From the IMG/VR virus record IMGVR_UViG_3300035676_000001: a stretch of DNA of 64,000 nt. One strand, 5' to 3'. The stretch comes from a virus. Its lineage: Duplodnaviria; Caudoviricetes. Positions 757 to 52,269 of this stretch are shown here, piece after piece; within the stretch, counting starts at the first letter, position 1, and every line of letters starts with the position of its first letter. The notes under the pieces are model-generated. The model saw only the letters and a list, made by a program, of their open reading frames with translations. It was not told the origin of the DNA and ran no database searches. The translations under genes were made by a program, and so were the position numbers.

Positions 757-3198
757 TTATGAAGGATAAGCGATGATGACGATACCGGAACCACCAGCCG
801 TAGCACCGTTACCGTTAGTAGCACCAGCATCTCTACCGCCTCCGCCGCCTCCACCAAGATTTGTAGTTCCTTTTGTTCCTATCTGTATATCATTACCACC
901 ATTTCCACCACCACCAGGACCACCGATACCAATTGATGGAACGGAAGTACCTTCTCCACATCCTCCACCTCCACCAGCATAAGTTACTGATGAACCAGAT
1001 ATTGATGATGCTTGTCCTGCCCCACCATTACCACCCCTGGTGGGTGGCGCTGCTTCACCTGCAGCAGAAGCTCCACCACCTCCCCCACCATAAAATGCAG
1101 GACCTACTTTACCATTTCCTCCATTATTGCCTTGTGGTGGTGATGTTGGTGGAGTGTTTCCAGAACCACCTAAACCAGAACCTGGAGAATTAGCACTACC
1201 TCCGCCGCCAGAACCACCAGATCTTCCATTTGATACTGATGGATTTCCAGCACCTGGTCCGCCATAACCCCCACCTCCGCCGCCGCCAGCAGATGTTATT
1301 GTAGAAAATATGGAATTAGACCCATTGGAACCAAAAGCAGTTGGACTATTTGGTCCACGAGTTCCCTCTACTCCCCCACCACCAACAGTAATTGTATAAG
1401 AACCAGGATTAGCACTTACAGGAAAACCAGAACCAGTTCTAAAACCACCAGCACCTCCTCCACCACCAGTCTGTTGTCCACCTCCACCACCACCAGCAAC
1501 TACAAGGTAATCGACAGAAGTTAAACCAGGATCAAGAACATTAAATGACGCAGATGAAGTAAAAGTATGAATAGTCTTACCACTAGCATAAGAAACTGTT
1601 CCACCAGTGGCTTTAATTGCTTGCTGTCCTATTTGGTAGCGAACGATGACGATACCGGAACCACCGGAACCACCTGTTCCATAATGAGCTCCGCCACCGC
1701 CACCACCTGTGTTTGATGAACCAGCAGATATTCCAGTAGGGAATCCTCCACCATTTCCACCACCGCCTGCTGATGGTGCTGGTCCTGGTGGTATTGGTCC
1801 TCCATTACCTGGTCCACCAATATTACCACCTCCTCCACCACCACCAGCATAAGTTGTAGAAGTTCCACTAATTGAAAATACTGCTCCCGCACCTCCAGAT
1901 CCTCCTCGCCCATTACCAAATCCTATTGGACGCCCATCAATTCCATTCGTTCCACTGCCACCAGCACCACCACCACCGCCGCCAGCTTCCCATTGTCCAG
2001 GAACGTGCTGTCCACTTCCACCATTATTTCCCTCTACAGGAGTATATCCACCACTGTTACCACTACCCCCAGGAAAAATCGCCGCAGGTCCTGGAGGAGC
2101 ACTACCACCTCCACCGCCAGAACCACCCGGAGAACCTGGATCACTATTTGAACCACCTGCTCCACCACCAGATGAAGTTATTGATCCAAATACAGAATTA
2201 CTTCCATTATTTTCTTGCGCTCCACCAGAACCAACAGTGACTGTATAAGAACCAGGAGAAGTGCTTACTGTAAATCCAATACCAGTTCTAAATCCACCAG
2301 CACCTCCACCACCACTTGAATATGCACCAGGACCAGGATTACCATTACCGCCACCGCCACCGCCACCAGCAACTACAAGATACTCAACAGTATTATTTAC
2401 TGAAGTTACGTTTAATACTGTAAAAGTTCCTGATGAAGTAAAGGTGTGTGTCTGATATAATGCTCCGCCACTATAATAATTACTAATTGTACCACCAGAT
2501 GCTTGTATGTATGAAGAAGTATTTGATGCGATCCAAGATGTTCCGTTATAAATTTCTAACTGTTGGGTTGAACTATTGTATATGATAGTTCCAGTAGCAG
2601 TTCCTACGCCAGCATTACGTCCAGTGGTCGTTGTAGCACCTAAACCAATTTGATTATTTCTTATAAAACTATCACCGACAGTGATACTTGTTGTAGCACC
2701 AACTCGAATGCCACCAGAAAACGTAGAGACACCGGAAGATTGAAGTCCTTGTGACTGTAAAACTCCAAAGACCGTTGCACCATATCCAGTGGTTTCAAAT
2801 TTTCTGGAGTTATCAAAATAGAGTTCTACTGCACCATTACCTCTAAAAATAGCACTACTTTCTCCAGAAAGACCTTGGATGTAAACATTATTACCATTAT
2901 CGGTAATGTAGAGACTTCCTGTAGTATTATTAATGTAAGTATTAGATCCATCATGATAAATTCTTAAATCATTGCCATCACCAAAATAAGCAACATCACC
3001 ATCTCCCCAATATGATGATGATCCAAAGGTAGAAACTCCAGTAACATTTAATGTTTGGGCATTTACATTTCCAAAATCACTTAATGTCAGTGAAGAAGCA
3101 TTAATACTTCCAGTGATAGTTCCAGTAGCAGTTAAGTTTTGAATTAAAACTGTTCCTGTACTTCCAATACCAGCGGCAGCAATCTTGGTAAATGCCAT
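757..3198 (-). CDS. Glycine-rich tail fibre/adhesin-like protein with two Gly-rich domains
   Basis: Fibre-type N-terminal modules, then two copies of EYLVVAGGGGGG...GGGGAGGFRTG...GGSGIVI domain, Pro-rich loops. Confidence 0.8.
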   Translation of the reverse strand: MAFTKIAAAGIGSTGTVLIQNLTATGTITGSINASSLTLSDFGNVNAQTLNVTGVSTFGSSSYWGDGDVAYFGDGNDLRIYHDGSNTYINNTTGSLYITDNGNNVYIQGLSGESSAIFRGNGAVELYFDNSRKFETTGYGATVFGVLQSQGLQSSGVSTFSGGIRVGATTSITVGDSFIRNNQIGLGATTTTGRNAGVGTATGTIIYNSSTQQLEIYNGTSWIASNTSSYIQASGGTISNYYSGGALYQTHTFTSSGTFTVLNVTSVNNTVEYLVVAGGGGGGGNGNPGPGAYSSGGGGAGGFRTGIGFTVSTSPGSYTVTVGSGGAQENNGSNSVFGSITSSGGGAGGSNSDPGSPGGSGGGGGSAPPGPAAIFPGGSGNSGGYTPVEGNNGGSGQHVPGQWEAGGGGGGAGGSGTNGIDGRPIGFGNGRGGSGGAGAVFSISGTSTTYAGGGGGGGNIGGPGNGGPIPPGPAPSAGGGGNGGGFPTGISAGSSNTGGGGGGAHYGTGGSGGSGIVIVRYQIGQQAIKATGGTVSYASGKTIHTFTSSASFNVLDPGLTSVDYLVVAGGGGGGQQTGGGGGAGGFRTGSGFPVSANPGSYTITVGGGGVEGTRGPNSPTAFGSNGSNSIFSTITSAGGGGGGGYGGPGAGNPSVSNGRSGGSGGGGSANSPGSGLGGSGNTPPTSPPQGNNGGNGKVGPAFYGGGGGGASAAGEAAPPTRGGNGGAGQASSISGSSVTYAGGGGGCGEGTSVPSIGIGGPGGGGNGGNDIQIGTKGTTNLGGGGGGGRDAGATNGNGATAGGSGIVIIAYPS

Positions 3199-39416: not shown

Positions 39417-40407
39417 AAATGCACATATCCTCAACTAATTGTTTAAAAGAAGTCTTAGGTTCCCAACCTAGTTTTTCCTTTGCCTTAGTGGCATCACCTA
39501 ATAAAGTCTCTACTTCAGCAGGTCGAAAATATTTAGGGTTTACCTTAATAACGGTTCTACCAGTATTTTTATCAATACCAATCTCATCTAGCCCTTCACC
39601 TTCCCATACAATATTCATATTAAAATAAGGTGCTGCTTCCTCTACAAACTCACGAACAGAATACTGAACACCAGTAGCAATTACATAATCTTCTGGTTCG
39701 TCTTGTTGAAGCATCAACCACATTGCTTCTACAAAGTCTTTGGCGTGTCCCCAATCACGCTTTGCATTTAGATTACCAAGCTCAAGAACATCTTGAAGAC
39801 CACAAGAAATGCGTGAAAGACCTCTTGTAATTTTGCGAGTTACAAAAGTTTCTCCTCGTCTTGGAGATTCATGATTAAACAGAATACCTGTGCAAGCATA
39901 CATTCCATAGGATTCACGATAGTTCTTTGTAATCCAATAACCATAAATCTTTGCTACACCATAAGGAGAACGGGGATAAAAAGGAGTAGTTTCACGCTGA
40001 GGAATTTCTTGAACCAAACCATAAAGTTCGCTAGTAGACGCCTGGTAGATGCGTACACGGTCTTCCAGACCCAAGAGACGCACTGCTTCAAGAACACGAA
40101 GAGTTCCCACAGCATCGACATCAGCAGTGTATTCAGGCATCTCAAAGGATACCTTAACATGACTTTGAGCACCAAGATTATAAATTTCATCTGGTTGGAC
40201 TTTTTGTATAACTCTGACTATATTAGTCGAGTCTGTTAAATCTCCGTAATGTAACTTAATATTTTGATACAAATGGTCAATTCTATCAGTATTAATTGAT
40301 GAAGAGCGACGAATAATGCCGTGAACTTCATAACCTTTTTCTAAAAGAAGTTCAGCAAGATAAGAACCATCTTGACCCGTAATACCAGTAATTAGTGCTC
40401 TTTTCAT
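39406..40407 (-). CDS. gmd: GDP-mannose 4,6-dehydratase
   Basis: [14 protein letters not shown]...QASTSE...PRSPYGVAK. Confidence 0.97.
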
Positions 40408-41228
40408 ACTTCGCAATTTGTAAAATCAATTTGACCATTTCTAGTAGCCCAGATTGGATACTCTCTACCATAAGTATTCCAGACTCTCGCTTGTTCTGAC
40501 CCTACAGGAACACCAGATAATCCAGCAGAATTCCAGATAGTTTCATAAGTATCATCTTCGTGAAATGTAAAGTCGTAACTTTCAGAATAAATTTTAAGAA
40601 TAAGAGAGAGAATAGATTGATCGTGCCTATTCTCTCTAAAGATAGAATCGTTAGGAAGTTCTGAAGGACTATCATCTAAGTAATGCCCATCATCTTCCAG
40701 ACAAATATTTTTCCATTTATCAACAATTTCTCTCATCAAAGAGTTATTCTTTATAAGAAAGATACCAGAAATAATCTGCCTGGTCATCAAATACTCATCG
40801 TTTTCGTCAATAATTCTACGATAGGTATCCATCTTTGTCCATTGGATTTCAGGAAGATCCAATGTAAAAAACACGCCGTTATTATCCAAACACTCCTGAT
40901 AATATTGTTGAAGTTTTTCTAATCCGTTCTTGTTAAGTTCGCATCCAGAATCGACATAAAGAAGGACATCATCTTCAGGAATATTGGAAAGTGCCTTACC
41001 AACAAAATAAGACTTAGCAGCATAATATCCATAATACTTGCTAGGCATTCCCACACGAGGAATCATTAGAAGCTTAGCGTGTTCTTCCCAAAATTCAGTT
41101 CCTTCTAAATCACTTTCACCGAACTCTTGAATAGATTTGAATACTCCAAAATTCTCTGCTTGTTTGCGTATCCTATTCTTACCAATAGAGAAGTTATTAT
41201 CTCCAAAATAAGTCAAGTGTATATTCAT
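40404..41228 (-). CDS. Glycosyltransferase-like hypothetical protein
   Basis: LLYVDSGC and RHDQSILS motifs. First gene of island. Confidence 0.6.
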
Positions 41229-41250
41229 ACAATTAATTTAATATCAAGTC

Positions 41251-41285
41251 ATTATACCAAAAAAGGAGAGTTTATGCAACTCTCC
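41251..41285 (-). promoter_or_regulatory. Terminator fused with sigma70 promoter for glycosylation island
   Basis: GGAGAGTT/AACTCTCC + T6 overlapping TTGCAT-17-TATAAT. Confidence 0.75.
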
Positions 41286-41289
41286 CATC

Positions 41290-41420
41290 AGGTCTTTCAT
41301 GCACGCCACCAATTCTTTGGCTGGAAATTGGAAACCAGGCGGGAGAGAGTCCCATCCGCACCACTTACTTTTGAGAAAAGCAAGAAAACAATAGGGTCAT
41401 ATTTGACTCCACCACTTGAT
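41290..41420 (-). ncRNA. manA-like RNA motif
   Basis: Non-coding GGTGGAGTCAA...CTTGCTTTT/AAAAGTAAG...GGTGCGGATGGGA/TCCCGCC...GGTGGCGTGCATG upstream of sugar genes. Resembles manA RNA as I recall it, needs Rfam check. Confidence 0.6.
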
Positions 41421-41421
41421 T

Positions 41422-41649
41422 TTAATAAACCAAGAAAAGTTGGGTTAGTTTTGAAATCTCAGTAAAGGTAAAGAATGCACATAAGAATAGCACATCCCAT
41501 AATTTTAACTTGATTGCAAAAGGTACTGTAAGTAATCCTCCAATACATTTTATAAGTAACCCATTTTTAAAATCTCCCCACAACATAATTTGATAACCAA
41601 TTATGAGAAAGAGATTTCCAAGATATCGTAAGATACTTGTGTTAGACAT
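41422..41649 (-). CDS. Small membrane protein
   Basis: Track ORF, three hydrophobic stretches. Confidence 0.6.
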   Translation of the reverse strand: MSNTSILRYLGNLFLIIGYQIMLWGDFKNGLLIKCIGGLLTVPFAIKLKLWDVLFLCAFFTFTEISKLTQLFLVY

Positions 41650-41694
41650 AAGGGGTTTGCTCCCGACCAGTGCGCTTTTATAGTCATCCCGAGA

Positions 41695-41928
41695 CTAATC
41701 ATCGTCTCTCACATAACAAGGAACTCTATCTGAATCAAGCCAACGAGCATAGTCGATGTCTTCCATTGCTAGAGAACATTGCATTACATTATCAAAGAGA
41801 TAAATGTCGTTCCAGCGTTTCGTATAATAATTTTGTTTTTGCATACGATAATCTGGTTTTCCATTTATTTCAAGGATACCTGCCTCAATGAAGCGGTATC
41901 CTTCGCGTTCAAGAAGAACTTTTGTCAT
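41695..41928 (-). CDS. Conserved cyanophage hypothetical protein
   Basis: Track ORF in coupled operon. Confidence 0.7.
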   Translation of the reverse strand: MTKVLLEREGYRFIEAGILEINGKPDYRMQKQNYYTKRWNDIYLFDNVMQCSLAMEDIDYARWLDSDRVPCYVRDDD

Positions 41929-42140
41929 GCCACTTCAACAGATTCCAGGTCGTGTGCTACATATTCCATTAGCATTTCGTAGTCATCCAGAGGGTCTCCA
42001 GAAAATACTACACCTTCGTTCTCATAGAAGCGACGAACCTTTTTATAAAGTTTCGGATTCTTTACATCAAGGTAGAATTCACCGTTAGCAGCAGAGCGTA
42101 GAGTGCTAACATCTTTCTTGAATTTTGCGGTCAGAGACAT
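41925..42140 (-). CDS. Conserved cyanophage hypothetical protein
   Basis: Track ORF. Promoter TTGACT-17-TATAAT upstream (42164-42192). Confidence 0.7.
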   Translation of the reverse strand: MSLTAKFKKDVSTLRSAANGEFYLDVKNPKLYKKVRRFYENEGVVFSGDPLDDYEMLMEYVAHDLESVEVA

Positions 42141-42217
42141 TGTTTTGAATTGTTTGCTCTAGTATTATAAGGTGTTGGGTTTGTTTAGTCAAGTGGTCCA
42201 GATTAGAAACTGGACAG

Positions 42218-42293
42218 TCGGAGTATTCGGATTTGAACCGAAATTATTCCTGCTCCCAAAGCAGGTGCCATGACCAAGTTAGGCGATACTCCG
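42218..42293 (-). tRNA. tRNA-Pro(UGG)
   Basis: CGGAGTA/TACTCCG acceptor, CCTGC-TTTGGGA-GCAGG anticodon arm. Confidence 0.93.
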
Positions 42294-42299
42294 TTACCG

Positions 42300-42416
42300 T
42301 TATTTATTTCGGTGTATAAGCATTATACCCATAATTGGAGCAATCGTCAAGCCCAACCCACAAAGACCCAACCAAACTGGACTATTCGCAAGTGCCTCTA
42401 CAATATGAAAAATCAT
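42300..42416 (-). CDS. Small membrane protein
   Basis: Hand translation MIFHIVEALANSPVWLGLCGLGLTIAPIMGIMLIHRNK. Confidence 0.5.
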   Translation of the reverse strand: MIFHIVEALANSPVWLGLCGLGLTIAPIMGIMLIHRNK

Positions 42417-42502
42417 TGTGGATATGCGTTATTGAGTGCCCAAATAATGAATAGTCCGATTATACCAAATATAGTCATTGCTGCAAAAATCGTGTTAGTC
42501 AT
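42413..42502 (-). CDS. Small membrane protein
   Basis: Hand translation MTNTIFAAMTIFGIIGLFIIWALNNAYPQ, ATGA overlaps. Confidence 0.5.
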   Translation of the reverse strand: MTNTIFAAMTIFGIIGLFIIWALNNAYPQ

Positions 42503-42785
42503 CTTCTTCGTCCTCATAAGTTGAAGGTTCTTCAAATAATTCGTCTATCTTCTGTTGTAAAACTCTTTTTTGGAGTTCTTGTAAATCTTTTTCTGTAAAT
42601 CTTACCACTAGTAGAGGGTCTCCTGCCTTAACGCCATTTAATTCTGGATGTTTAACTTTTGGACTTTTTGAATACCCGTAACGAGCATTCATTAGCATCC
42701 AACCTTGAATAAACATTGATAGTGCAATGCCTACAAGAACAAACCAAGGAACTAAAAAGATTAGTTCAGAGTGATTTTGAGCCAC
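42495..42785 (-). CDS. DUF2973-like membrane protein
   Basis: TM segment then KVKHPEL...GDPLLVVRF. GTG start chosen. Confidence 0.55.
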   Translation of the reverse strand: MAQNHSELIFLVPWFVLVGIALSMFIQGWMLMNARYGYSKSPKVKHPELNGVKAGDPLLVVRFTEKDLQELQKRVLQQKIDELFEEPSTYEDEEDD

Positions 42786-42976
42786 GGTAATAGGGGTGGA
42801 ATGACCCCAATAAGTCGTAGAAGTCCTTCTGCAAATAATGCGAGAACTACCCAACCGACACACATACTGATGATAGAAGCATTACGATTGTGTCGTCGTA
42901 TTGCTGCTGCGATGGATTCATCAATCATCGACTGAACTTCTTCCTTATCCATAGGTAGTAAATTTATGGAACTCAT
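42761..42976 (-). CDS. Conserved cyanophage membrane protein
   Basis: HNRNASIISMCVGWVVLALFAEGLLRL. Confidence 0.65.
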   Translation of the reverse strand: MSSINLLPMDKEEVQSMIDESIAAAIRRHNRNASIISMCVGWVVLALFAEGLLRLIGVIPPLLPWLKITLN

Positions 42977-43136
42977 TACGAATCATTCTATCAAGTTCAT
43001 CCAAGTCTTCTGGTAAAATCCAGTTTTCTTTAATGATTTTATCAGCAAATCTGTAAGAATCAGTAGCAATCTGAATTTTTAATCTAGAAAATGAACTGAG
43101 AATAAACGCTCTCTTTTGAAAGTGTTCGTCTTTCAT
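42945..43136 (-). CDS. Hypothetical protein
   Basis: Track ORF in coupled operon. Confidence 0.55.
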   Translation of the reverse strand: MKDEHFQKRAFILSSFSRLKIQIATDSYRFADKIIKENWILPEDLDELDRMIRNEFHKFTTYG

Positions 43137-43330
43137 TTTTCATCACCAAGAAACTTCGCCAGAGGGTCTCTCCTCGTTTTAGCAATTTCAACTGCTCTCT
43201 TGTAAAACATATTATCTGTATTACCAGAGGCTTCAAAAGTCTCCTTGATCTTCACCCAATTGTCGTAGGTGTGCTGATCCATAGGGGTTTTAGGTTGAAT
43301 ACTACTAGTTATGCTAGCGAGTAGTTTCAA
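43133..43330 (-). CDS. Conserved cyanophage hypothetical protein
   Basis: YDNWVKIKETFEASGNTDNMFYKRA. True start likely the internal MDQHTY. Confidence 0.65.
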   Translation of the reverse strand: MKLLASITSSIQPKTPMDQHTYDNWVKIKETFEASGNTDNMFYKRAVEIAKTRRDPLAKFLGDEK

Positions 43331-43371
43331 CCTGTCAACTGTGTGTGGGTTTGGTGATAGTGTTTAAGAGA

Positions 43372-43632
43372 TTATAAAGAAGGTGTATCGCTTGATACTT
43401 CTAACGATGCTTGATAAGCAGAAATGACTTCTGGTGTCCAGGTTGCTTCTGCGATTGCTACGACTCTTGGGTCTTCGTTTGTGAGGTCATCACCAGGTGA
43501 TAGAACGTGACGGTGATAAGTTGCTGCAACTTCTACACCATCTTTAAGAATTTGGTCTCTTCTACGAACTTGTATTTGTCCTAGTAGTAGAACTTCAATC
43601 TTATCTACGACTGATTTTTCTTCAAGTGCCAT
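43372..43632 (-). CDS. Fibre-associated small protein
   Basis: VVDKIEV...IQVR...YHRHVLSPGDD...DPRVVAIA. Confidence 0.7.
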   Translation of the reverse strand: MALEEKSVVDKIEVLLLGQIQVRRRDQILKDGVEVAATYHRHVLSPGDDLTNEDPRVVAIAEATWTPEVISAYQASLEVSSDTPSL

Positions 43633-43685
43633 TAGGATAATCCTCCGGATGAAACAGATTTAGGCTTAGATATTTATTAGATATT

Positions 43686-44636
43686 TCAAATTCTATAGAA
43701 TACTCCACCACTAATATCTGTTCCACCGCTACTACAATCAGTTAATGCTACGCTAGCAGCACTACCTCCAGATCTATTTTTAGCAAAATTAATAGTAGTA
43801 CCGCCCGAAGAAGCACTCATATCCAAATAGGTAAAACCAGTATATGTAATATTATCCTGTTGAGGAGTAGTTTTTGCTTGAACTATATTTGCCGCAGTGA
43901 AAGGCAATCCAGCTATTTGAACGCCTCCACTACCAGTTCCATTTGTAAATGTAAAAGTTGCTCTAAAAGAAACATAAACCATATTACCTATCTTAGTGTA
44001 ACTGCCAGTCTGAATTGAGTAACTAATACCAGTTGGAGCTCCACCAGAAGCGGTAAGTGTTGGTGTCCAAGTTCCTGTTTCATAATCACTCAAAACTTCA
44101 GAAGACATTGTTCCTGAACTATTAGCAGTCGCAGAGAAGTCTATACCATATCCACTACTCATTATAATATTTTGACTATTCATTGATAATGGTCTATCCA
44201 TCTGGATATTTCCAGAACTAGCATTATCACTAAATCTTAAGTTTGCTCCATTACCATAGATATCCCATTGTCCACTACTAGCGGCAGCATACATTCTTAC
44301 ATAAGCACCTGCTGTTGTGCTTTGACTTTTAAAATGATTGTTGATTAATGCTGGAGTCTCATATTTAAAAGCGGTCATTATTCCCGCAGTATTCACAAGA
44401 TTAAAGTTACCACTGGAATCTATACGAACTTTTTCTGTGTTATTGGTTCCCAGAGATAATACATTAGTCGCTGGAGAATACACAGAAGCACCAGTACCGA
44501 CTACAATACCTCCAGTAGCAGTAACAATACCAGTCGCATTTAAGTTTGTTACAGTAGGTAGTTCGGCACCACTGACAGTCAAACTCCCATCAATCGCTGT
44601 AATAGTATCAGTTTGCCCGTTTATCTGAATACCCAT
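43686..44636 (-). CDS. Tail fibre/receptor-binding-like protein (moron)
   Basis: LSDYETGTWTPTL...GSYTKIGNMVYV...GLPFT tip domain. TATAAATA at 44658-44665. Confidence 0.75.
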   Translation of the reverse strand: MGIQINGQTDTITAIDGSLTVSGAELPTVTNLNATGIVTATGGIVVGTGASVYSPATNVLSLGTNNTEKVRIDSSGNFNLVNTAGIMTAFKYETPALINNHFKSQSTTAGAYVRMYAAASSGQWDIYGNGANLRFSDNASSGNIQMDRPLSMNSQNIIMSSGYGIDFSATANSSGTMSSEVLSDYETGTWTPTLTASGGAPTGISYSIQTGSYTKIGNMVYVSFRATFTFTNGTGSGGVQIAGLPFTAANIVQAKTTPQQDNITYTGFTYLDMSASSGGTTINFAKNRSGGSAASVALTDCSSGGTDISGGVFYRI

Positions 44637-44669
44637 TCGTCACAAAGACTTTTCTGGTATTTATAAGAA

Positions 44670-44756
44670 CGGAAGGTGGGAGAGTCGAACTCCCAAGGGC
44701 TTTAACACCTCAACGCTTTTCAAGAGCGGTTCCGTCGCCAATCGGATTGACCTTCC
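44670..44756 (-). tRNA. tRNA-Ser(UGA)
   Basis: GGAAGGT/ACCTTCC acceptor, CTTGAAA loop, long variable arm. Confidence 0.9.
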
Positions 44757-44766
44757 AAATAAGTCC

Positions 44767-45024
44767 TCAGCGGACTTCGAAATCAAGACGCTTTACTTTA
44801 CGCTGGCGTCTTGCTTCTTGAAATGCAAGGTCTTCATTGGTAAGAACACCAGACCTTGAATTATTACTATAAGAGTTTAGCATAACAACCTTAGATAAGT
44901 CAATAGCTGAGATTCTATCTCCACGAACAGTCGCCATATTTGGACAACCACACGACACAGTTTTAGTAGGATGCCCCTCTAACTCCCTGTTACAGGAGCG
45001 GCATCTGATTTTTAAATTTTCCAT
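44767..45024 (-). CDS. Conserved Zn-binding hypothetical protein
   Basis: CRSC...CGCPN motifs. Confidence 0.7.
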   Translation of the reverse strand: MENLKIRCRSCNRELEGHPTKTVSCGCPNMATVRGDRISAIDLSKVVMLNSYSNNSRSGVLTNEDLAFQEARRQRKVKRLDFEVR

Positions 45025-45033
45025 TGTCTTAAA

Positions 45034-45525
45034 TTACTCTTCTACCGTTTCTTCAATAACTTCAATTTGTTCGTCAACCTTTTGCGTTGGTTTATCTGAA
45101 AATGAACGCAACATCCATACAAACTTGCCGTGAGACTCCATCAAATCTTGGACCAGATTTGCGGTAGCATATGACTTTTGAGTTTCTGCTTCTTCTGAAA
45201 TCTTGGACATCATATCGCAGAACTCAATATTAGATTTCAATAAGTCTGAAATCATACCTTCAGCGTTTACTGAACTATTTCCTTCAGCAATACCAGACAC
45301 TTCAAGAACTCTCTTTAAGCTACTGAGAGGTTTAACATTCAAATATCTCATATGTTCTGAGAGACGGTCAATCTCTTCAAACATAGTCTCATACTGTCCA
45401 CCAAAAAGGGTATGAAGTTGTTGGAAATCTTCTCCTACAACATTCCAATGATAGACCCAAGTTTTATGAAAAAGGACAAAAAGAGACGCTTGTGCATCAC
45501 TCAATAGTTTAAATAACTTTTCCAT
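45034..45525 (-). CDS. dps: Dps family ferritin-like protein
   Basis: YHWNVVG..F..LH...EIDRLSEH ferroxidase ligands, HGKFVWMLRS end. Confidence 0.85.
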   Translation of the reverse strand: MEKLFKLLSDAQASLFVLFHKTWVYHWNVVGEDFQQLHTLFGGQYETMFEEIDRLSEHMRYLNVKPLSSLKRVLEVSGIAEGNSSVNAEGMISDLLKSNIEFCDMMSKISEEAETQKSYATANLVQDLMESHGKFVWMLRSFSDKPTQKVDEQIEVIEETVEE

Positions 45526-45549
45526 TATACCAATACTTTTTTCAAGTAT

Positions 45550-45984
45550 TTATAAAGTGGGCATTACAGTATGTTTGGGATGTTTGCATCCTCTTGAATA
45601 TCTTCCATTTCCAATATTTTTTGATCCAAAAGTTTCAGTTAATGAATGGCAGTTTGGACACAAAACTCTAAGATTACTTGAAGTATGATTAAATGGGTCA
45701 CCATCAATGTGGTCTATATGGAGTGGAACTTTTCCAGTATTAGAATTAATTTCCGACCAACCACATTCAGAACACTTACTATTAGATTGCTCTATCAAAT
45801 AATTTCTAACATATTGCGATAGTTGAAATCCATTTCCACCCAATTCTTTACCATTCAACCATCCAAATATATATTCTTTACTTCTATAATCAGAAGAACA
45901 TCTACAAGAGCAATATTTTCCAGATTTATTTGCTGGATTATATTTAAATTGCTTATTACAATTCAAACAATTTGAAATCGCCAT
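45550..45984 (-). CDS. HNH homing endonuclease
   Basis: CSECG...LHIDHIDGDPFNH...NLRVLCPNCHSLT, N-terminal CxxC...CSxxC. Confidence 0.88.
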   Translation of the reverse strand: MAISNCLNCNKQFKYNPANKSGKYCSCRCSSDYRSKEYIFGWLNGKELGGNGFQLSQYVRNYLIEQSNSKCSECGWSEINSNTGKVPLHIDHIDGDPFNHTSSNLRVLCPNCHSLTETFGSKNIGNGRYSRGCKHPKHTVMPTL

Positions 45985-46037
45985 AGTAATGTAGAGTATT
46001 TTTTGTTATTTATACAACTCTACATTAAAATTTAAAA

Positions 46038-46109
46038 TGGGCAATCGCAGATTCGAACTGCGGACTTTCTGAATGTAAATCAGACACTCTACCGCTGAGT
46101 TAATCGCCC
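46038..46109 (-). tRNA. tRNA-Val(UAC)
   Basis: TCTGA-TTTACAT-TCAGA anticodon arm, GTTCGAAT T-loop. Confidence 0.93.
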
Positions 46110-46116
46110 GATAAAG

Positions 46117-46281
46117 TCAAGATTGACTTAACATATATTCTACAGTATTTGCTACATCGTTCATAGCATCACGAAGGTCTGGTCTTTGTCCAGACTCCAT
46201 TTTAATAATGGGTCGGTGGTCGTCAACCAAAGTCCAACGCCACTGTTTCATATCTTCACAATACCAGAGATTAATTTTCAT
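46117..46281 (-). CDS. Conserved cyanophage hypothetical protein
   Basis: Hand translation MKINLWYCEDMKQWRWTL...ESGQRPDLRDAMNDVANTVEY. Confidence 0.6.
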   Translation of the reverse strand: MKINLWYCEDMKQWRWTLVDDHRPIIKMESGQRPDLRDAMNDVANTVEYMLSQS

Positions 46282-46474
46282 TCTTTTGATATTCTAATTT
46301 AATCCAATTAAGAAGAGCATAAGTTTCTGGCAACTCTGCCTTACAATTTAGATAGTCAGTATCATCAAGCATTTCTTCTGCTTCATAATGCTCTATCTCA
46401 CTTGAGAGATAATCTGCATAATGTCTGAAAGCAGTGATAGCAAGTTGTCTATCTCGTTGGGAAATAAGAGACAT
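46271..46474 (-). CDS. Hypothetical protein
   Basis: Track ORF with RBS. Promoter TTGACG-17-TATTAT (46496-46524). Confidence 0.65.
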   Translation of the reverse strand: MSLISQRDRQLAITAFRHYADYLSSEIEHYEAEEMLDDTDYLNCKAELPETYALLNWIKLEYQKNEN

Positions 46475-46538
46475 AACCCTCCTAACTCGTTATCTATAAT
46501 ACACCAAAAAGGGGGTTTCGTCAACCCCCTTATGTATA

Positions 46539-47510
46539 TCAGTCTCCCAGACCAATCTGATTGACGGCAATTCGTGCCTTATTCAGAATAGAACCTGAAA
46601 GAGGTACATAACCCAAATCATCAGCAATCATCTGTGCCTTAGAACTGAGAGCATACTTCAGAGCATTTCTGACTGCCTCTGCCTTACCAGGGGCATAACC
46701 ACTCTTATAAGCAAGAATCCAGGTCAGAGTGGAGATAGGATATGCACGAGGATTGGAAGGATTGGGGTCTTCACCAGCAAGATTCTTATCCAGAACAATA
46801 CTGTTCAGAGCAGCGGCACCAGTCACAGCAGAAGGTCCGACGAACTTACCTGCCTTATTTTGAAGAACTGCTGCTTGGAGTTTATTCGAACGAACAAATC
46901 CAGTATTCACATAACCAATCGCACCAGGAGTGTTCTGGATTGTACCAGCAACACCTTCATTACCCTTTGCACCGACTCCAACAGGCCAATTGATGGATTT
47001 ACCGACACCAGCAGTCCAACCACCGAAGGCATCCAGAGAGTTCGTGAAAGCAAAAGTAGTACCAGAACCATCAGCACGATGAACCACACTAACTTTACCA
47101 GCAGCACAACCGACTTGTTTCCAGTCTTTAATACGACCAGCAAAGATATCGACAGTTTGCTTCTGAGTCAGTTTCAGTTTGCAACCAGGTTTGTTATAGG
47201 CAACAGCAATCGTTCCACCCACCATAGGAATCTGAACGACACCACGCTTTACTTTTGCTGCTTCTTTTGTCTTGATGGGTTCGTCGCTTGCTCCGAAGTC
47301 AACTGTGCCCGCAACAAATTGACGAACACCAGCACCAGAACCAACGGACTGATAATTAACCCTGTTCCCAGTAGTTCGTGCATAATCTTGGAACCATCGT
47401 TGATAGATTGGTGCGGGGAAGGTAGCACCAGCACCATTAAGAGTAGGTCCAGCAAGTGCAGAGGTAGGAGCAAGAGCAAGACCGATTGTAGCAATATGTT
47501 TGAGTTTCAT
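46539..47510 (-). CDS. pstS: Phosphate ABC transporter substrate-binding protein
   Basis: LNGAGATFP...YQSVGSGAG...DFGASD...HRADGSGTT. Confidence 0.95.
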   Translation of the reverse strand: MKLKHIATIGLALAPTSALAGPTLNGAGATFPAPIYQRWFQDYARTTGNRVNYQSVGSGAGVRQFVAGTVDFGASDEPIKTKEAAKVKRGVVQIPMVGGTIAVAYNKPGCKLKLTQKQTVDIFAGRIKDWKQVGCAAGKVSVVHRADGSGTTFAFTNSLDAFGGWTAGVGKSINWPVGVGAKGNEGVAGTIQNTPGAIGYVNTGFVRSNKLQAAVLQNKAGKFVGPSAVTGAAALNSIVLDKNLAGEDPNPSNPRAYPISTLTWILAYKSGYAPGKAEAVRNALKYALSSKAQMIADDLGYVPLSGSILNKARIAVNQIGLGD

Positions 47511-47532
47511 AAGAATTAAGAACTTCGTAAGT

Positions 47533-47577
47533 ATTCTAAAATAGGAATAAAGTAAAGTCCACTAAGAATTGGTTAAG
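47533..47577 (-). promoter_or_regulatory. Putative pho box promoter of pstS
   Basis: CTTAACCA-3-CTTAGTGG-2-TTTACTTT, 10 nt, then TAGAAT, no -35. Confidence 0.6.
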
Positions 47578-47590
47578 GTTTTGATTTCAT

Positions 47591-47617
47591 AAAAAACCAC
47601 CCCAAAAAGGGGTGGTT
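47591..47617 (-). terminator. Porin terminator
   Basis: AACCACCCC/GGGGTGGTT + T-run. Confidence 0.8.
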
Positions 47618-47640
47618 CCACTCAACTTATGAGTAGTTTA

Positions 47641-49137
47641 TCAGAACCTGAACTGAGTCTGAATCACACCACCGTAGTTAGAAGAAGCATTCTTGAAACC
47701 TTGGTTGTTAGACACATAGAACACAGAAGGAGTGATGCTGATGTTATCGCTAACCTTGTAACGATAGAAGGTTTCCCACATCACAGCATCCTTGGTCAGG
47801 GAAGCAGCGTTACCAGGAGCACCGATGGCGAATCCAGCGGCATTACCCTTGGCGAACACGTCTGCCCACTGAAGACCAGCAAACCAAGTGGTAGAGTTAG
47901 TAGCACCAGTAGGAGTGCTACGACCAGCAGCATTCTTGCTCACTTCGTTCCAACCATAAGCACCAGAGATGGAAGGAACAATACCTGCCTTCTTAGGTTG
48001 CCAGTATGCGTTCAGAGCATAGTTGTTAGAGGTTTGTCCTGCAACAAGAGAACCAGAACCACCGTTCACAGCGTTAAAGTTGCGAACACGAGTTCCTTCA
48101 GTACCATAACGGTAACCGAATGCAGCACCGAACTGAGGAGCACGGTAACCGACCTGAGCAAGCAGGTTCAGAGCACCAGTCTCATCAAATTGACCCTTGG
48201 TAGAATCAGAACCGTTCTGAGCAACATAGTTCACACCAGCAACGAAACCACCCTTACCTTTCTTAACAGGTTGTGCCCACTGAGCACCGAAACCAGAACC
48301 CGTTGCCTTGTTGTAGACACCAGGAGCACCAGCAACTTGGAAGAAGTCAAGAATGTCCGACTTGTATGCAGAAGGAACCCATGCCATTTCGGTGTTACGA
48401 ACGATAGCACCAGCAGTCAGAGTTACGCCCTTTGCAAGACCAGGGAACTGGTAGTACAGACGGTCAAGTTTCACAGCATCAGCATAAGATTCTGCCTTGT
48501 CCAGTTTGAACAGTGAGGAAGAAGAACCAAAGGGTTGACTGGAGAAGTTACCCGAACGCAGACGAGTGCGGAGAAGGTCCTTACCAGTGAAGGAAGTATC
48601 GAAGTTCAGACGAACATCATAGTTGAATGCAGTATTACCAACATTAGTATTGTTAGCAAGACGAGCACCTTCTACACCACCAAGAACGAAGGTTGCTTCA
48701 CCACGCAGTTTGGTGGTAGTGGAGAACTGGGTTGCTTCCAGTTGTCCGACCTTGCTTTCAAGGTTGGTAACACGACCACGAAGAACGGCGAGTTCACCAG
48801 CAAATTCCTTTTGAAGGCGGCGGAGTTCATCGGTAACTTCCGTCACACGGTCAAGGCAAGCATTGAGAAGAGCAGCGGCTTCGTAACGAGTCATTGCCTT
48901 AGAACCACCAAAGGTGCCGTTAGGATAACCAGCAACGCAACCATAGTTTTCTACAAGGTTTGCGAGTGCCTGATATGCCCAATCACCAGGTTGAACATCT
49001 GTAAATTGGGAAACACTTGTAACCTGTTCATTGGAATATTGATTGACTGCTGCAATGTTAAGGTCTGCGGCATTTGCAACAGCAGGAGCAATCATACCAA
49101 GAGCAACAGGTGCAAGCATCAGTTGTTTGATTTTCAT
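47641..49137 (-). CDS. Cyanobacterial SLH-domain outer membrane porin (Som/OprB-like)
   Basis: Signal peptide, FTDVQPGDWAYQAL SLH domain, FSTTTKLRGE barrel start, C-terminal Phe. Confidence 0.9.
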   Translation of the reverse strand: MKIKQLMLAPVALGMIAPAVANAADLNIAAVNQYSNEQVTSVSQFTDVQPGDWAYQALANLVENYGCVAGYPNGTFGGSKAMTRYEAAALLNACLDRVTEVTDELRRLQKEFAGELAVLRGRVTNLESKVGQLEATQFSTTTKLRGEATFVLGGVEGARLANNTNVGNTAFNYDVRLNFDTSFTGKDLLRTRLRSGNFSSQPFGSSSSLFKLDKAESYADAVKLDRLYYQFPGLAKGVTLTAGAIVRNTEMAWVPSAYKSDILDFFQVAGAPGVYNKATGSGFGAQWAQPVKKGKGGFVAGVNYVAQNGSDSTKGQFDETGALNLLAQVGYRAPQFGAAFGYRYGTEGTRVRNFNAVNGGSGSLVAGQTSNNYALNAYWQPKKAGIVPSISGAYGWNEVSKNAAGRSTPTGATNSTTWFAGLQWADVFAKGNAAGFAIGAPGNAASLTKDAVMWETFYRYKVSDNISITPSVFYVSNNQGFKNASSNYGGVIQTQFRF

Positions 49138-49212
49138 AAAAGATTTGTGTTTTGTACTAAACGACAATGTAAAGATTTCCTACAGAAGAGAAAACCTTCG
49201 TATATAGGGGAA

Positions 49213-49314
49213 CTTAACCGAATCTTAAGAAACTATTAAGTTGGGAGTATCATAGCACAACAGTATCGGTTGTGTCAATTAAGATACGGTTAAGACTTTT
49301 TACGGATAGTTAAG
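49213..49314 (-). promoter_or_regulatory. Porin promoter with 11-bp-spaced TTAA repeats
   Basis: TTGACA-18-TATGAT, CTTAACCG-3-CTTAATTG over the -35, triple repeat at 49213/49224/49235. Confidence 0.6.
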
Positions 49315-49316
49315 AA

Positions 49317-49388
49317 AGCGGCTGACCCGATTCGAACGGGCGACATCCAACTTGGAAGGATGGCGTTCTACCACTGAACTACAACCGC
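49317..49388 (-). tRNA. tRNA-Gly(UCC)
   Basis: CCATC-CTTCCAA-GTTGG arm, U73. Confidence 0.92.
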
Positions 49389-49389
49389 A

Positions 49390-49460
49390 ATGTGGAGGAT
49401 TTACCCAGCCTCAGAGTTTCCTCTTCATAGGCACGGAACCTCCGGCACTTCCTTCACACA
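49390..49460 (-). ncRNA. Candidate structured RNA with K-turn (unassigned)
   Basis: Own promoter TTGACA-17-TATACT (49466-49494), fold GGAGG/CCTCC enclosing GCC-TAT-GA-AGAG-GAAA-CTCT-GA-GGC. Confidence 0.6.
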
Positions 49461-49495
49461 AGAGAAGTATAGGACATAATGAGTATTATGTCAAG

Positions 49496-49568
49496 AGCCC
49501 CCGACAAGATTCGAACTTGCGACAAATGGTTTACAAAACCATTGCTCTACCAACTGAGCTACAAGGGC
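49496..49568 (-). tRNA. tRNA-Thr(UGU)
   Basis: ATGGT-TTTGTAA-ACCAT arm. Confidence 0.93.
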
Positions 49569-49570
49569 AA

Positions 49571-49642
49571 CTGGGGTGACTGGATTCGAACCAGTAACCT
49601 GCGAGTTAACAGCTCGACGCACTGCCGTTGTGCTACACCCCA
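49571..49642 (-). tRNA. tRNA-Asn(GUU)
   Basis: TGGGGTG/CACCCCA acceptor, CTGTTAA loop, G73. Confidence 0.92.
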
Positions 49643-49679
49643 TTGTTTATTCAGTTAAACTTGGAGAATAAATCTCCAA

Positions 49680-49753
<74 letters not shown>

Positions 49754-49757
49754 ATAA

Positions 49758-49823
49758 GTAGGTTCCTATCGCCGCCACTCCTGAACCTACCGAAGGGGAG
49801 TACCGCAGTTGATTTCTCAACTC
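49758..49823 (-). ncRNA. Candidate pseudoknotted RNA (unassigned)
   Basis: Own promoter TTGACG-17-TATAAT (49828-49856), GAAA hairpin plus H-type pseudoknot. Confidence 0.6.
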
Positions 49824-49858
49824 TGATATTATACCAGTCCTTGAGAAAGTCGTCAAGG

Positions 49859-49940
49859 TGGGCAGGGAGGGATTTGAACCCCCGTAGGCAGAGCCAGTGG
49901 ATTTACAGTCCACCTCCATTAACCACTCGGACACCTACCC
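49859..49940 (-). tRNA. tRNA-Tyr(GUA)
   Basis: GTGGA-CTGTAAA-TCCAC arm, long variable arm. Promoter TTGACG-17-TACAAT upstream. Confidence 0.93.
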
Positions 49941-49999
49941 GACTTCTTTATTGTATCATTCTTTAGGGTAGTCGTCAACTAAAGAGATGCAGATTAAAC

Positions 50000-50683
50000 T
50001 TAACCATTGGAAACTATAGAAATTCCATCTAATGATTGTTCAGTTTTAAAAAGTTCAATAATATTACTATCGATAACATTTGGATCTACATACCAATCTT
50101 CAAAAGCGTGACCACAATTAAGAACATTTTTAGCAATTGATTCATATCCATAATCTCTAAAAATTTTTCTAGATTCCTCTACACATTCTGAAGAGGATCT
50201 ATAAGCATCAGTCTCATATGTAATCACAGAAAATCTGTAAGTATCTAATGGAAGATTTTTAAGGCAAGCAAGTGTTTGTTCTGCAGGATCAATGTCAAGT
50301 TGAAGATAATCAATCTGAGTTGAGAAATTATTTTCCTCAAAAATTTTACTATAATCTGCAGTAATTGCATTTGCACATATGCAATTATTTTTTCTAACTG
50401 AATTATAATGATTTACTTTCTCTGATTCAATTTCGAAAGAAACACCTTTCCAATCATATTCTGACTCTAAAAGATAGGTGTTATTAATCACAATTGGATC
50501 GTCTCCTCCAATTTCAATATAAGTTCCATTCTTCTTCCCATTCAGCATACTCAAAACAAACATATCCTGAAATGCTTGTGAGTAATTATTTTTAATGAGA
50601 TTTATATTTTTAAATTTATATTTTAAACTATTTGCATTTTCGGCAAAATATCTATGGCAATCATAGTCGGAAAAACTAGACAT
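50000..50683 (-). CDS. FkbM-like methyltransferase
   Basis: QAFQD...GTYIEIGG...NNTYLLE...IDYLQLDIDP. Confidence 0.65.
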   Translation of the reverse strand: MSSFSDYDCHRYFAENANSLKYKFKNINLIKNNYSQAFQDMFVLSMLNGKKNGTYIEIGGDDPIVINNTYLLESEYDWKGVSFEIESEKVNHYNSVRKNNCICANAITADYSKIFEENNFSTQIDYLQLDIDPAEQTLACLKNLPLDTYRFSVITYETDAYRSSSECVEESRKIFRDYGYESIAKNVLNCGHAFEDWYVDPNVIDSNIIELFKTEQSLDGISIVSNG

Positions 50684-50753
50684 AATACTAAAAATAATTT
50701 TTAATAATAAAAAAGGGAGTATCGTAGCACTCCCCCTTATTTATTCTATTTTA

Positions 50754-51386
50754 TCAAACCTCTACCGTGATCAGTTTGGAAGCATACTCATGTGCATAAG
50801 ATGTACGGGCACCATGATGCCCCCAACCAATCCAACTATACGCATAGTCCATATAACGATTGATAGATTTACCAGGAGTCTTCATACGCTCCTCAATCTC
50901 CTTCCACTGGACTTCATTCGTAAGATAACGAAGTTGCGTGTGAAGTGATGATGGCGAACCACCAAACTTCTTAGCAAAATCACCCAATCCATAATAACGG
51001 TTGGCAGATGTCCATTGAATCAGTCCGTAACCACGTCCGCAGTTACCCCAACTGGTTCTACTACCACCTTCGCAAATATTAGGAACGAATGTTGATTCTT
51101 GTCTAATATTGCCCATAATGGTAGCAAGGGCGTTTCTGTCTTTAATTCCAATGTCCTGAAAATAATTCAGGGCTACATTTTCATTTTCATTACACCCTTT
51201 ACAAATTAGCCTTTTCTCTTTTGGCTTTTCGGGAGCAACCTCTTTGGTCGCTGTCGGCGTTTCAAACTCCTTAATAACAGAAAACGGCGCTGGGGGAGTC
51301 GTCAAAGGAGGAAATATCGGCAGTGTTGCCATATTGGTTGTAACCGATGCCAGGAGAGGCAGGGCTACAGTAAAGAAGTTTTGCAT
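50754..51386 (-). CDS. Lysozyme-like cell wall hydrolase (tail-tip lysozyme type)
   Basis: ATIMGNIRQES...GYGLIQWT motif, hydrophobic N-terminus. Confidence 0.8.
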   Translation of the reverse strand: MQNFFTVALPLLASVTTNMATLPIFPPLTTPPAPFSVIKEFETPTATKEVAPEKPKEKRLICKGCNENENVALNYFQDIGIKDRNALATIMGNIRQESTFVPNICEGGSRTSWGNCGRGYGLIQWTSANRYYGLGDFAKKFGGSPSSLHTQLRYLTNEVQWKEIEERMKTPGKSINRYMDYAYSWIGWGHHGARTSYAHEYASKLITVEV

Positions 51387-51396
51387 TTAATCGATT

Positions 51397-51505
51397 GAAC
51401 TCTACATCCGTATAGAGAAAGCGCACTTCCCTCTTCTCAGAGGGCAATCTCCACGGCTCTAAAATCACATCAAAATCTCATGATGTAATCCCTGTTATGG
51501 GATTT
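51397..51505 (-). ncRNA. Structured 5' leader of hydrolase gene
   Basis: Two hairpins plus three-way junction between TTGACA-17-TATTAT and the ATG. Confidence 0.5.
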
Positions 51506-51533
51506 TTCATAATAAGTTAATATTTAGTATTTG

Positions 51534-51737
51534 TCAAGCGCCCTCAGACACTTCTTCAACTGTCTCTTCAGGTTCGGGAAGCACCACACCTATTTGCTGC
51601 AGATACTCAATAGCACCCTGAACTTTAAGAAAAAGTTCTCTTTTAGATGTTAATTGTCCGTTCAAACCATCAAGTTCTTGAGCAAGAGTTTGACGCTGTT
51701 GAATAAGATTTGCAAGATGTTGTTGTTGTTCGGTCAT
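51534..51737 (-). CDS. Small coiled-coil protein
   Basis: Track ORF, heptad pattern. Confidence 0.65.
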   Translation of the reverse strand: MTEQQQHLANLIQQRQTLAQELDGLNGQLTSKRELFLKVQGAIEYLQQIGVVLPEPEETVEEVSEGA

Positions 51738-51807
51738 TTCTATTATTAAAATATAATCTATTATACCATATATTTTACTAAATACTTACACACCATATTT
51801 TAGAACG

Positions 51808-52269
51808 ATGAAAAGATTAGCACTTATCTTTTCGTTATTCCTTACCACTCCTGCTTTTGCTGGCGAAATCACATCAAAAATCACTGACTCAATTCAATTA
51901 GGCGTTCAGGGTGCAGCGGTACAAACCGAAAGAGTTGGTGCCTCGTATGCGGTCTCAGGCACCAATATCAATGTAACAACTCTTGGAGGAGTTGGCGGCG
52001 CAGGTTCTTATGATATCAACACAAACGGACAAGCATTTAGTTTCTCTGAAACATCAATTACTGCAGATGTTGATGTTACCTCTCAGTCGGCAGCTTCTGG
52101 AACAATTGCTTCTCCCAACCTTTATGGCAACTCTACTACTCAGTTAGGTGGCTCTGCAGGTTCTCTTTCTGGTTCTCTAAGTGGAACTGGAGTTCCTAGC
52201 GTCACTGCTGGTGGTCCTGGAAGCACAGGAACAGCACAAAGAACCGTTGAGTTAAGCGTATTCAAGTGA
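51808..52269 (+). CDS. Secreted hypothetical protein
   Basis: Signal peptide ending PAFA. CTAAATA late promoter at ~51778. Confidence 0.75.
   Translation: MKRLALIFSLFLTTPAFAGEITSKITDSIQLGVQGAAVQTERVGASYAVSGTNINVTTLGGVGGAGSYDINTNGQAFSFSETSITADVDVTSQSAASGTIASPNLYGNSTTQLGGSAGSLSGSLSGTGVPSVTAGGPGSTGTAQRTVELSVFK

Follow-up and report, generated by a model that had tools for sequence, protein, structure and literature searches.

The spacer between two tRNA genes of a T4-like cyanophage harbours a member of an RNA family that is widespread in cyanophages and that consists, as predicted from sequence comparison, of a promoter-driven, pseudoknotted RNA of about 68 nucleotides. The family is new, yet the general kind to which it belongs is known, namely the orphan structured RNAs of cyanophages and the stable RNAs of T4-like tRNA clusters.

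Cyanophages are responsible for the daily death of a large part of the main primary producers in the ocean, and to our knowledge the control of early gene expression in these phages is poorly understood. The RNA described here is an abundant and sharply defined fold in the model phages P-SSM2, S-SKS1 and ACG-2014f, and its core of about 60 nucleotides, with strong covariation and near-invariant loops, is a good target for structural and biochemical work. A role, if found, would place an element of known function beside the orphan cyanophage RNAs manA and wcaG and could explain the folded RNAs in phage tRNA arrays, a question that has been open since the discovery of the T4 species 1 and 2 RNAs. 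In addition, the link to tRNA-Arg(UCU) and tRNA-Pro(UGG) could then reveal a new layer of phage tRNA biology.

Location and layout of the tRNA-Tyr/tRNA-Arg spacer

The DNA analysed is a stretch of 64,000 nucleotides (IMG/VR record IMGVR_UViG_3300035676_000001), here called the window. It is T4-like cyanophage DNA whose closest isolates are Synechococcus phages, for example S-SRM01 and DSL-LC02/03. A full-length wcaG RNA, an orphan cyanophage motif, is present at 41295-41392 on the minus strand (RF01761, 99.1 bits; gathering score 42) and likewise marks the window as cyanophage DNA. All eight tRNA genes identified in the window with ARAGORN are encoded on the minus strand, and the motif lies on the same strand in a 102-nt spacer between tRNA-Tyr (49940-49857) and tRNA-Arg(UCU) (49754-49679). 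The features of this region are, in the direction of transcription:

49940-49857 (3' end 49857/9), minus strand: tRNA-Tyr, found with ARAGORN and RF00005; upstream neighbour of the -35 hexamer
49856-49851, minus strand: -35 hexamer TTGACG, directly after the 3' end of tRNA-Tyr (promoter scan, 11/12)
49833-49828, minus strand: -10 hexamer TATAAT with an upstream TG (extended -10), 17-nt spacer to the -35 hexamer (promoter scan)
49822-49807, minus strand: hairpin P1, AGUUGA-GAAA-UCAACU, 6 bp (AGUUGA 49822-49817, UCAACU 49812-49807)
49808-49803, minus strand: linker CUGCGG, overlapping the 3' end of P1; C4 and G5 predicted to pair with G3 and C2 of L3
49802-49797, minus strand: 5' strand of S1, UACUCC, partner 49781-49776
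49796-49791, minus strand: L1, CCUUCG; CCUU invariant, the last 0-2 nt may lengthen S2 in relatives
49790-49783, minus strand: 5' strand of S2, GUAGGUUC, partner 49765-49758; the three junction-proximal UUC/GAA pairs are invariant
49782, minus strand: L2, a single A at the S1/S2 junction, an invariant alignment column
49781-49776, minus strand: 3' strand of S1, GGAGUG, partner 49802-49797
49775-49766, minus strand: L3, GCGGCGAUAG; first three nt opposite the CUGCGG linker, remainder GCKAUAG nearly invariant
49765-49758, minus strand: 3' strand of S2, GAACCUAC, partner 49790-49783
49754/3-49679, minus strand: tRNA-Arg(UCU), found with ARAGORN (Rfam tRNA 71.7 bits), separated from S2 by UUAU (4 nt)

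The earlier note had described a TTGACG-17-TATAAT promoter followed by P1, S1, L1, S2, L2 and L3, and each of these elements is found at the place claimed for it when the minus strand is read. Its statement that the motif ends four nucleotides before tRNA-Arg was borne out as well, since UUAU is followed there by tRNA-Arg(UCU).

Behind tRNA-Arg a 36-nt spacer (49643-49678, minus strand) contains the hairpin UUGGAGA-UUUAU-UCUCCAA, which could be a processing site or a weak terminator; a similar spacer start, GUUGGAGAUUGA, is located behind the tRNA-Arg of RB11-B.

Covariation and architecture of the pseudoknot

In an alignment of six isolates, compensatory changes are present in P1, S1 and S2, whereas TATAAT, CUGCGG, CCUU, UUCAGG and GCGGC-AUAGGAA are invariant. 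The nested minimum free energy fold of the single sequence gives a z of -0.45, a value that is uninformative because a nested fold cannot represent a pseudoknot. The proof of the pseudoknot therefore rests on the comparison of homologues. In an alignment of 108 distinct homologues, 99.5% of the S1 cells are paired, with compensatory changes in four of six pairs, and 96.6% of the S2 cells (up to 99.5% across alignments), with compensatory changes in six of ten pairs. A second alignment of 150 sequences, covering all subfamilies, gave the same picture; overall, 94-98% of the cells are paired and 10-11 pairs carry compensatory changes. When the partner columns were slid by 1-3 positions, pairing in the 108 homologues fell to 21-50%, and no column shuffle of this alignment reached the observed covariation. 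The H-type pseudoknot, for which the earlier note had proposed covariation analysis as a check, is thus real and under selection: the S1 and S2 pairings are conserved in the homologues, and compensatory changes occur in 10 of their 16 pairs. G.U pairs are frequent (42 of 108 sequences at one S1 pair, for example), and since they would be C.A mismatches on the opposite strand, the fold belongs to the minus-strand transcript.

The hairpin P1 is found in nearly all copies, with at least ten different stem sequences and a loop of 3-43 nt. Its stems covary (GUUGA/UCAAC, GUCAG/CUGGC, GUGGUU/GACCAC, GUCGG/CCGAC and others), and its 3' strand terminates in the first C, or CU, of CUGCGG.

For S1, the pairing UACUCC/GGAGUG stated in the earlier note holds but its length has to be revised, because two more pairs (C4-G3 and the covarying N5-N2) link CUGCGG to the start of L3. 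Linker position 5 is paired with L3 position 2 throughout the 150 sequences, as G-C in 83, U-A in 57 and U.G in 10, with no mismatch, and this pair is a newly found extension of S1, predicted from its covariation. C4-G3 is invariant in the same 150 sequences and is a candidate for a further S1-extending pair. A search for variants of it returned 104 pattern matches, of which only one (L350) is a true motif; the change of G3 in this locus is uncompensated. Between S1 and these pairs, linker position 6 faces L3 position 1, mostly as G.G and in 12 of the 150 sequences as C-G. The register C4-G3, N5-N2 agrees with 150 of 150 sequences. The subfamilies show the same coupling: L3 GCGGCG occurs with linker CUGCGG, GAGGCG with CUGCUG and GGGGCG with CUGCUC. 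An alternative extension of S1, CUGC/GCGG with a two-nucleotide bulge, was rejected: L3 position 2 varies between C, A and G while the G3 that would be its partner is invariant.

The architecture thus comprises an S1 of 6 bp, the G.G (sometimes C-G) apposition and the two further linker pairs, together with an S2 of 8-10 bp. With the added linker-L3 pairs, S1 would span nine stacked positions, and only seven nucleotides of L3 would be left unpaired. The conserved loops are CCUU in L1, the single A of L2 and GCKAUAG in L3 beyond its paired part. About 30 loop and junction nucleotides are invariant across myoviruses of Prochlorococcus and Synechococcus and the siphovirus S-SKS1. Such invariance is typical of a specific tertiary fold or a binding surface. 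The CCUU of L1 lies opposite the invariant UUC/GAA pairs of S2 and the purine-rich L3 opposite S1, an arrangement that is compatible with base triples. The length of L1 is not fixed, as seen at locus L250 (3346-3409, plus strand), where L1 is 6 nt longer (CCUUUAUGCU) and S2 could be re-drawn with 10 bp (AACGGGUUUC/GAAACUCGUU).

Coupling to a sigma-70-type promoter

The promoter of the window, TTGACG-17-TATAAT, scores 11/12 in the promoter scan and carries a TG extension. Among 106 distinct homologues, 97 have a -10 element 3-6 nt before P1 as detected (5-6 nt if it is read as TATAAT), and in 90 of those 97 a -35 element is located 16-19 nt from the detected -10. About 90% of the copies thus keep a sigma-70-type promoter, and the promoter call of the earlier note proved sound. 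The coupling is kept where a tRNA lies directly upstream and also where the promoter is embedded in the end of a coding sequence. Its conservation despite these upstream constraints suggests that a 5' end at P1 matters. We infer that transcription starts at the base of P1, at about 49822-49820.

Four sigma-70-like promoters (10-11 of 12) lie within 730 nt (49249-49978, minus strand), starting at 49978, 49856, 49494 and 49278, and would divide the short tRNA array into several transcription units. One of them, TTGACA-17-TATACT (11/12), opens a second spacer, between tRNA-Thr and tRNA-Gly (49494-49389, minus strand), and is followed by about 75 nt of non-tRNA sequence. The earlier note had called the RNA of this second spacer a K-turn RNA and had seen in the cluster a repeated design of promoter, non-coding RNA and tRNA. 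The promoter-like site agrees with such a design, but the RNA itself has a match, and only a partial one, in just one of the phage isolates, S-SRM01, so that the repeated design is weakly supported.

Distribution of the RNA family

When 50,697 phage records were searched with BLAST at high sensitivity, the region from the -10 box through S2 was recovered in the isolates S-SKS1 (92% identity), SynMITS9220M01, P-SSM2, P-SSM5, S-SCSM2R, all ACG-2014f isolates and the S-B43/RB11-B group, and in addition in two marine viral single-cell amplified genomes. All other matches were spurious and 22 nt long, so that within these records the real matches are confined to cyanophages and marine viral amplified genomes. 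The motif is unannotated in all isolate records examined. A covariance model of the core has one match in the window (82 bits) and exactly one strong match each in S-SKS1, SynMITS9220M01, P-SSM2, ACG-2014f, S-SCSM2R and RB11-B. The same model gave no match in S-PM2, S-RSM4, Syn1 and S-BM3. The element is therefore single-copy and accessory. A weak second match of the model in SynMITS9220M01 (MT408532.1, 177497-177541, minus strand; 18.8 bits, E 0.005) is either a diverged relative or due to chance.

In IMG/VR, a pattern of the invariant core matched at least 120 contigs, with one chance match among the matches listed, and a second pattern for the L3 variant also matched at least 120 contigs, with 114 true ones among the matches listed. 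Both patterns together yield at least 233 true loci. The first pattern (GCGGC subfamily) was also searched in 185,579 prokaryotic genomes, one genome per species. It had 33 matches, 32 of them by chance, and the sole true copy is located on a stray 832-nt low-coverage contig of a metagenome-assembled genome. This near-absence from prokaryotic genomes identifies the GCGGC subfamily as a phage and not a host element. Relatives of the motif are also present, with small word shares, in contigs of two RNA-library runs, and one of these contigs continues into the promoter.

A full-text literature search returned no description of the motif. In PMC10690425, about 10,000 viral RNA candidates from IMG/VR are catalogued without names, for example one overlapping a tRNA-Arg, and the motif may already be among these unnamed candidates.

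Genes downstream of the motif

Among the matches listed, 222 IMG/VR loci could be scored, and in 124 of these (56%) a tRNA begins 2-6 nt after the eighth S2 pair. In these matches the tRNA is always tRNA-Arg(UCU) (110 loci) or tRNA-Pro(UGG) (14 loci). At 80% identity the tRNA-Arg genes behind the motif form 12 clusters, the lowest identity being 53%, and the pseudoknot cores have a median identity of 86%. The exclusive association with these two tRNAs, including much-diverged Arg genes, hints at a functional tie to the tRNA.

The remaining 99 loci among the matches listed precede protein genes or a second promoter and are mostly AT-rich and Prochlorococcus-phage-like. The designation of the RNA as a tRNA leader in the earlier note consequently fits only the first group. 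At the protein-gene loci the motif ends 16-38 nt before the start codon, and the AU-rich linkers contain no Shine-Dalgarno sequence. The proteins encoded there are unrelated to each other and comprise two DUF6561 types, PurM, a tryptophan-halogenase-like protein, a phosphomannomutase, phrog_3704, a Phd-like antitoxin and small unknown proteins. No terminator was found after the motif in the loci preceding protein genes, and nothing terminator-like follows it in the window. S-SKS1-type loci have a second consensus promoter directly after the motif, and the RNA there looks like a unit of its own.

Two loci deserve a remark. At L042 (about 2020-2100, plus strand) the tRNA-Arg behind the motif breaks off in the D-arm region, and 80 nt further on lies a CxxC-rich open reading frame that resembles a zinc-finger or HNH-type endonuclease; this may be the insertion of a homing endonuclease or intron into the tRNA. 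In P-SSM2 (L003; AY939844.2, 504-882) the annotation of the gene behind the motif reads purM (phosphoribosylaminoimidazole synthetase). A near-identical homologue of this protein from IMG/VR (L050, 228 aa) lacks a Pfam AIR-synthase domain, and its match is phrog_3704, which is labelled ferredoxin, so that the annotation in P-SSM2 looks doubtful. A true PurM is encoded behind the motif in other loci (L056).

Relation to known RNA classes

The Rfam search that the earlier note had proposed was carried out with Rfam 15 (cmscan, E up to 10) on positions 40000-52000 of the window and on eight homologous loci. No match overlapped the motif, while the same search recovered the tRNAs, wcaG and manA; no Rfam family thus explains the RNA. 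A tRNA or tRNA-like structure was rejected, as the only tRNAs recognised here by ARAGORN and RF00005 are the neighbouring tRNA-Tyr and tRNA-Arg. A type III antitoxin RNA of the ToxI kind was likewise dismissed: the motif is present in a single copy per genome, without tandem repeats and without an adjacent toxin gene. The P3-P7 core of a miniature group I intron, mimicry of the 16S 530 loop, an anticodon-loop decoy for tRNA-Arg or tRNA-Pro and an intrinsic terminator formed by S2 were also dropped, since the likeness extends over a few nucleotides, lies in variable positions or is without an Rfam match. A read-through or frameshift pseudoknot was discarded because most copies have no upstream open reading frame reading into the motif.

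The closest parallel in position is found in T4, whose tRNA cluster yields the stable species 1 and 2 RNAs (rnaC, rnaD), with ends set by the tRNA-processing enzymes. We know of no function for these RNAs to date. Like them, the RNA between tRNA-Tyr and tRNA-Arg is a small folded non-tRNA RNA inside the tRNA array of a T4-like phage, encoded on the strand of the tRNAs and presumably co-transcribed with them. This likeness applies to part of the family only, as 44% of the loci, among the matches listed, are located outside tRNA arrays. The cyanophage RNA further differs in being driven by a promoter of its own and in forming an H-type pseudoknot, and a sequence relation to rnaC and rnaD is not expected.

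Possible functions of the RNA

The earlier note had named a ligand-binding aptamer, a nuclease decoy and a processing signal as roles that the RNA could have, and the first of these is weakened by the lack of space for an expression platform ahead of the tRNA. As a tentative reading, which falls somewhat short of being probable, we propose a discrete stable RNA that is released by RNase P and binds a conserved partner. A sigma-70-type early promoter would generate a transcript beginning at the base of the variable hairpin P1, and P1, the CUGCGG linker and the compact H-type pseudoknot would together form a small structured RNA gene module. RNase P defines the 5' ends of tRNAs, and from this established enzymology a cut 2-6 nt after S2 is expected in the window and in just over half of the family, so that the RNase P site of tRNA-Arg would set the 3' end of the pseudoknot RNA. 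The product, of about 68 nt with a flush hairpin at its 5' terminus, would be of a design that favours stability, and during early infection the released fold would bind its partner, either a small molecule or a protein of the host or the phage. The RNA probably does not regulate the adjacent gene. With a tRNA only 2-6 nt away, an expression platform has no space, and cleavage by RNase P would part the RNA from everything downstream. At the protein-gene loci without a terminator the RNA would stay part of a 5' UTR unless it is cut, which fits a role in cis equally well; the same-strand adjacency to the downstream gene and the tight promoter coupling are also expected of a cis-acting leader.

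The restriction to tRNA-Arg(UCU) and tRNA-Pro(UGG) is explained neither by a discrete stable RNA nor by the alternatives discussed below. The RNA could also be the first example of a new functional class, in which a pseudoknot confined to phages and coupled to a promoter has an activity of its own, which we consider possible but doubtful. Such an activity might lie in the reprogramming of the cyanobacterial RNA polymerase by RNA alone, in ligand binding or catalysis by a new fold, or in controlling how tRNA-Arg(UCU) and tRNA-Pro(UGG) mature or are used. The last of these would explain why only these two tRNAs follow the motif, with Arg genes down to 53% identity.

A leader acting in cis in the manner of the HK022 put sites is unlikely. 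The nascent pseudoknot would bind the host RNA polymerase and allow read-through of pause or termination signals in the tRNA array or the early operon. The RNA polymerases of the hosts of these phages are nearly identical, and the motif is phage-only and very highly conserved across phages. It is promoter-proximal in about 90% of the copies, always on the strand of the following genes, without a terminator behind it, and indifferent to whether a tRNA or a protein gene follows. With putL and putR it shares that it is phage-encoded and heads early transcripts, close to the promoter and whatever the downstream genes, with a fold of about 70 nt. However, put consists of two adjacent stem-loops with conserved internal loops and without a pseudoknot, whereas the cyanophage RNA is built from one hairpin and an H-type pseudoknot. 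Moreover, put occurs once per early operon, but the motif is present in one copy per genome despite the many early promoters of cyanophages, four within 730 nt here. The Rfam search also revealed no sequence relation to known antiterminator RNAs.

We regard it as quite unlikely that the motif is a portable stabiliser or expression cassette at the 5' terminus of transcripts, in which the flush hairpin and the robust pseudoknot would protect against 5'-end-dependent RNase E or RNase J and the loops would serve only to build the tertiary fold. In most copies transcription is predicted to start where the pairing of P1 begins, which would fit such a device, as would the facing of CCUU with S2 and of L3 with S1, which is compatible with stabilising base triples like those of other compact pseudoknots. 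The motif precedes unrelated auxiliary genes, followed by AU-rich linkers without a Shine-Dalgarno sequence. However, a stabiliser is of no obvious use before a tRNA, since RNase P removes the motif there, and yet this is its commonest context. The single copy per genome also argues against it, and about 30 invariant nucleotides across distant phages are rare for a simple stabiliser.

An aptamer of the riboswitch type, which would sense a metabolite and control either the gene behind it or the processing of the downstream tRNA by RNase P, is improbable. The SAM-II, preQ1-II and guanidine-III aptamers are compact H-type pseudoknots. The cyanophage RNA resembles SAM-II, SAM-V, preQ1-II and guanidine-III in size and topology, in that a short L1 lies opposite S2 and a purine-rich L3 opposite S1, and in its invariant loop nucleotides, and its position at the 5' end of the transcript would suit a riboswitch. 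Some copies precede a purM or phosphomannomutase gene and in this resemble the contexts of the orphan manA motif (PMC2864571). In contrast to these riboswitches, however, the RNA has no match to an Rfam 15 riboswitch model at E up to 10, and neither an expression platform nor a set of related genes was found: the motif ends 2-6 nt before a tRNA in 124 of 222 loci among the matches listed, no terminator or Shine-Dalgarno-sequestering alternative structure is visible, and the downstream tRNAs and unrelated proteins have no pathway in common.

A self-cleaving ribozyme or dedicated processing signal that frees the 5' end of the downstream RNA is highly improbable: the pseudoknotted fold, its highly conserved unpaired nucleotides and the fixed short distance to the tRNA 5' end would be in line with it, but RNase P is still needed to remove the 2-6 nt, many copies have no tRNA behind them, and no twister, pistol, hatchet, hammerhead or HDV model matches. 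HDV-like theta ribozymes have reportedly been described beside tRNAs in gut phages. This particular class was rejected, as only A 49782 lies between the 5' strand of S2 and the 3' strand of S1, where HDV-like ribozymes have the P3 hairpin, and L3 contains no hairpin either.

Other folded RNAs in cyanophage tRNA arrays

Two orphan RNAs of the same phage group, manA (RF01745) and wcaG (RF01761), occur in a similarly mixed genomic context, which comprises auxiliary metabolic genes, genes of nucleotide synthesis and hsp20 neighbourhoods (PMC2864571). Both differ from the cyanophage pseudoknot in sequence and fold, and the latter is much smaller, with its core of about 60 nt, and is tied to a promoter. 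The 192-position model of manA had no match in the window region or in the P-SSM2 locus. Identity with manA was ruled out by ACG-2014f (L004; KJ019093.1), in which the motif (401-482) and a manA match (566-776, Rfam 90 bits) are separate. The manA RNA of this phage is located between two tRNAs (491-564 and 778-849) with gaps of 1 nt, showing that folded RNAs within tRNA arrays recur in cyanophages. It would be excised free by tRNA processing, which fits badly with the usual description of manA as a cis-regulatory element.
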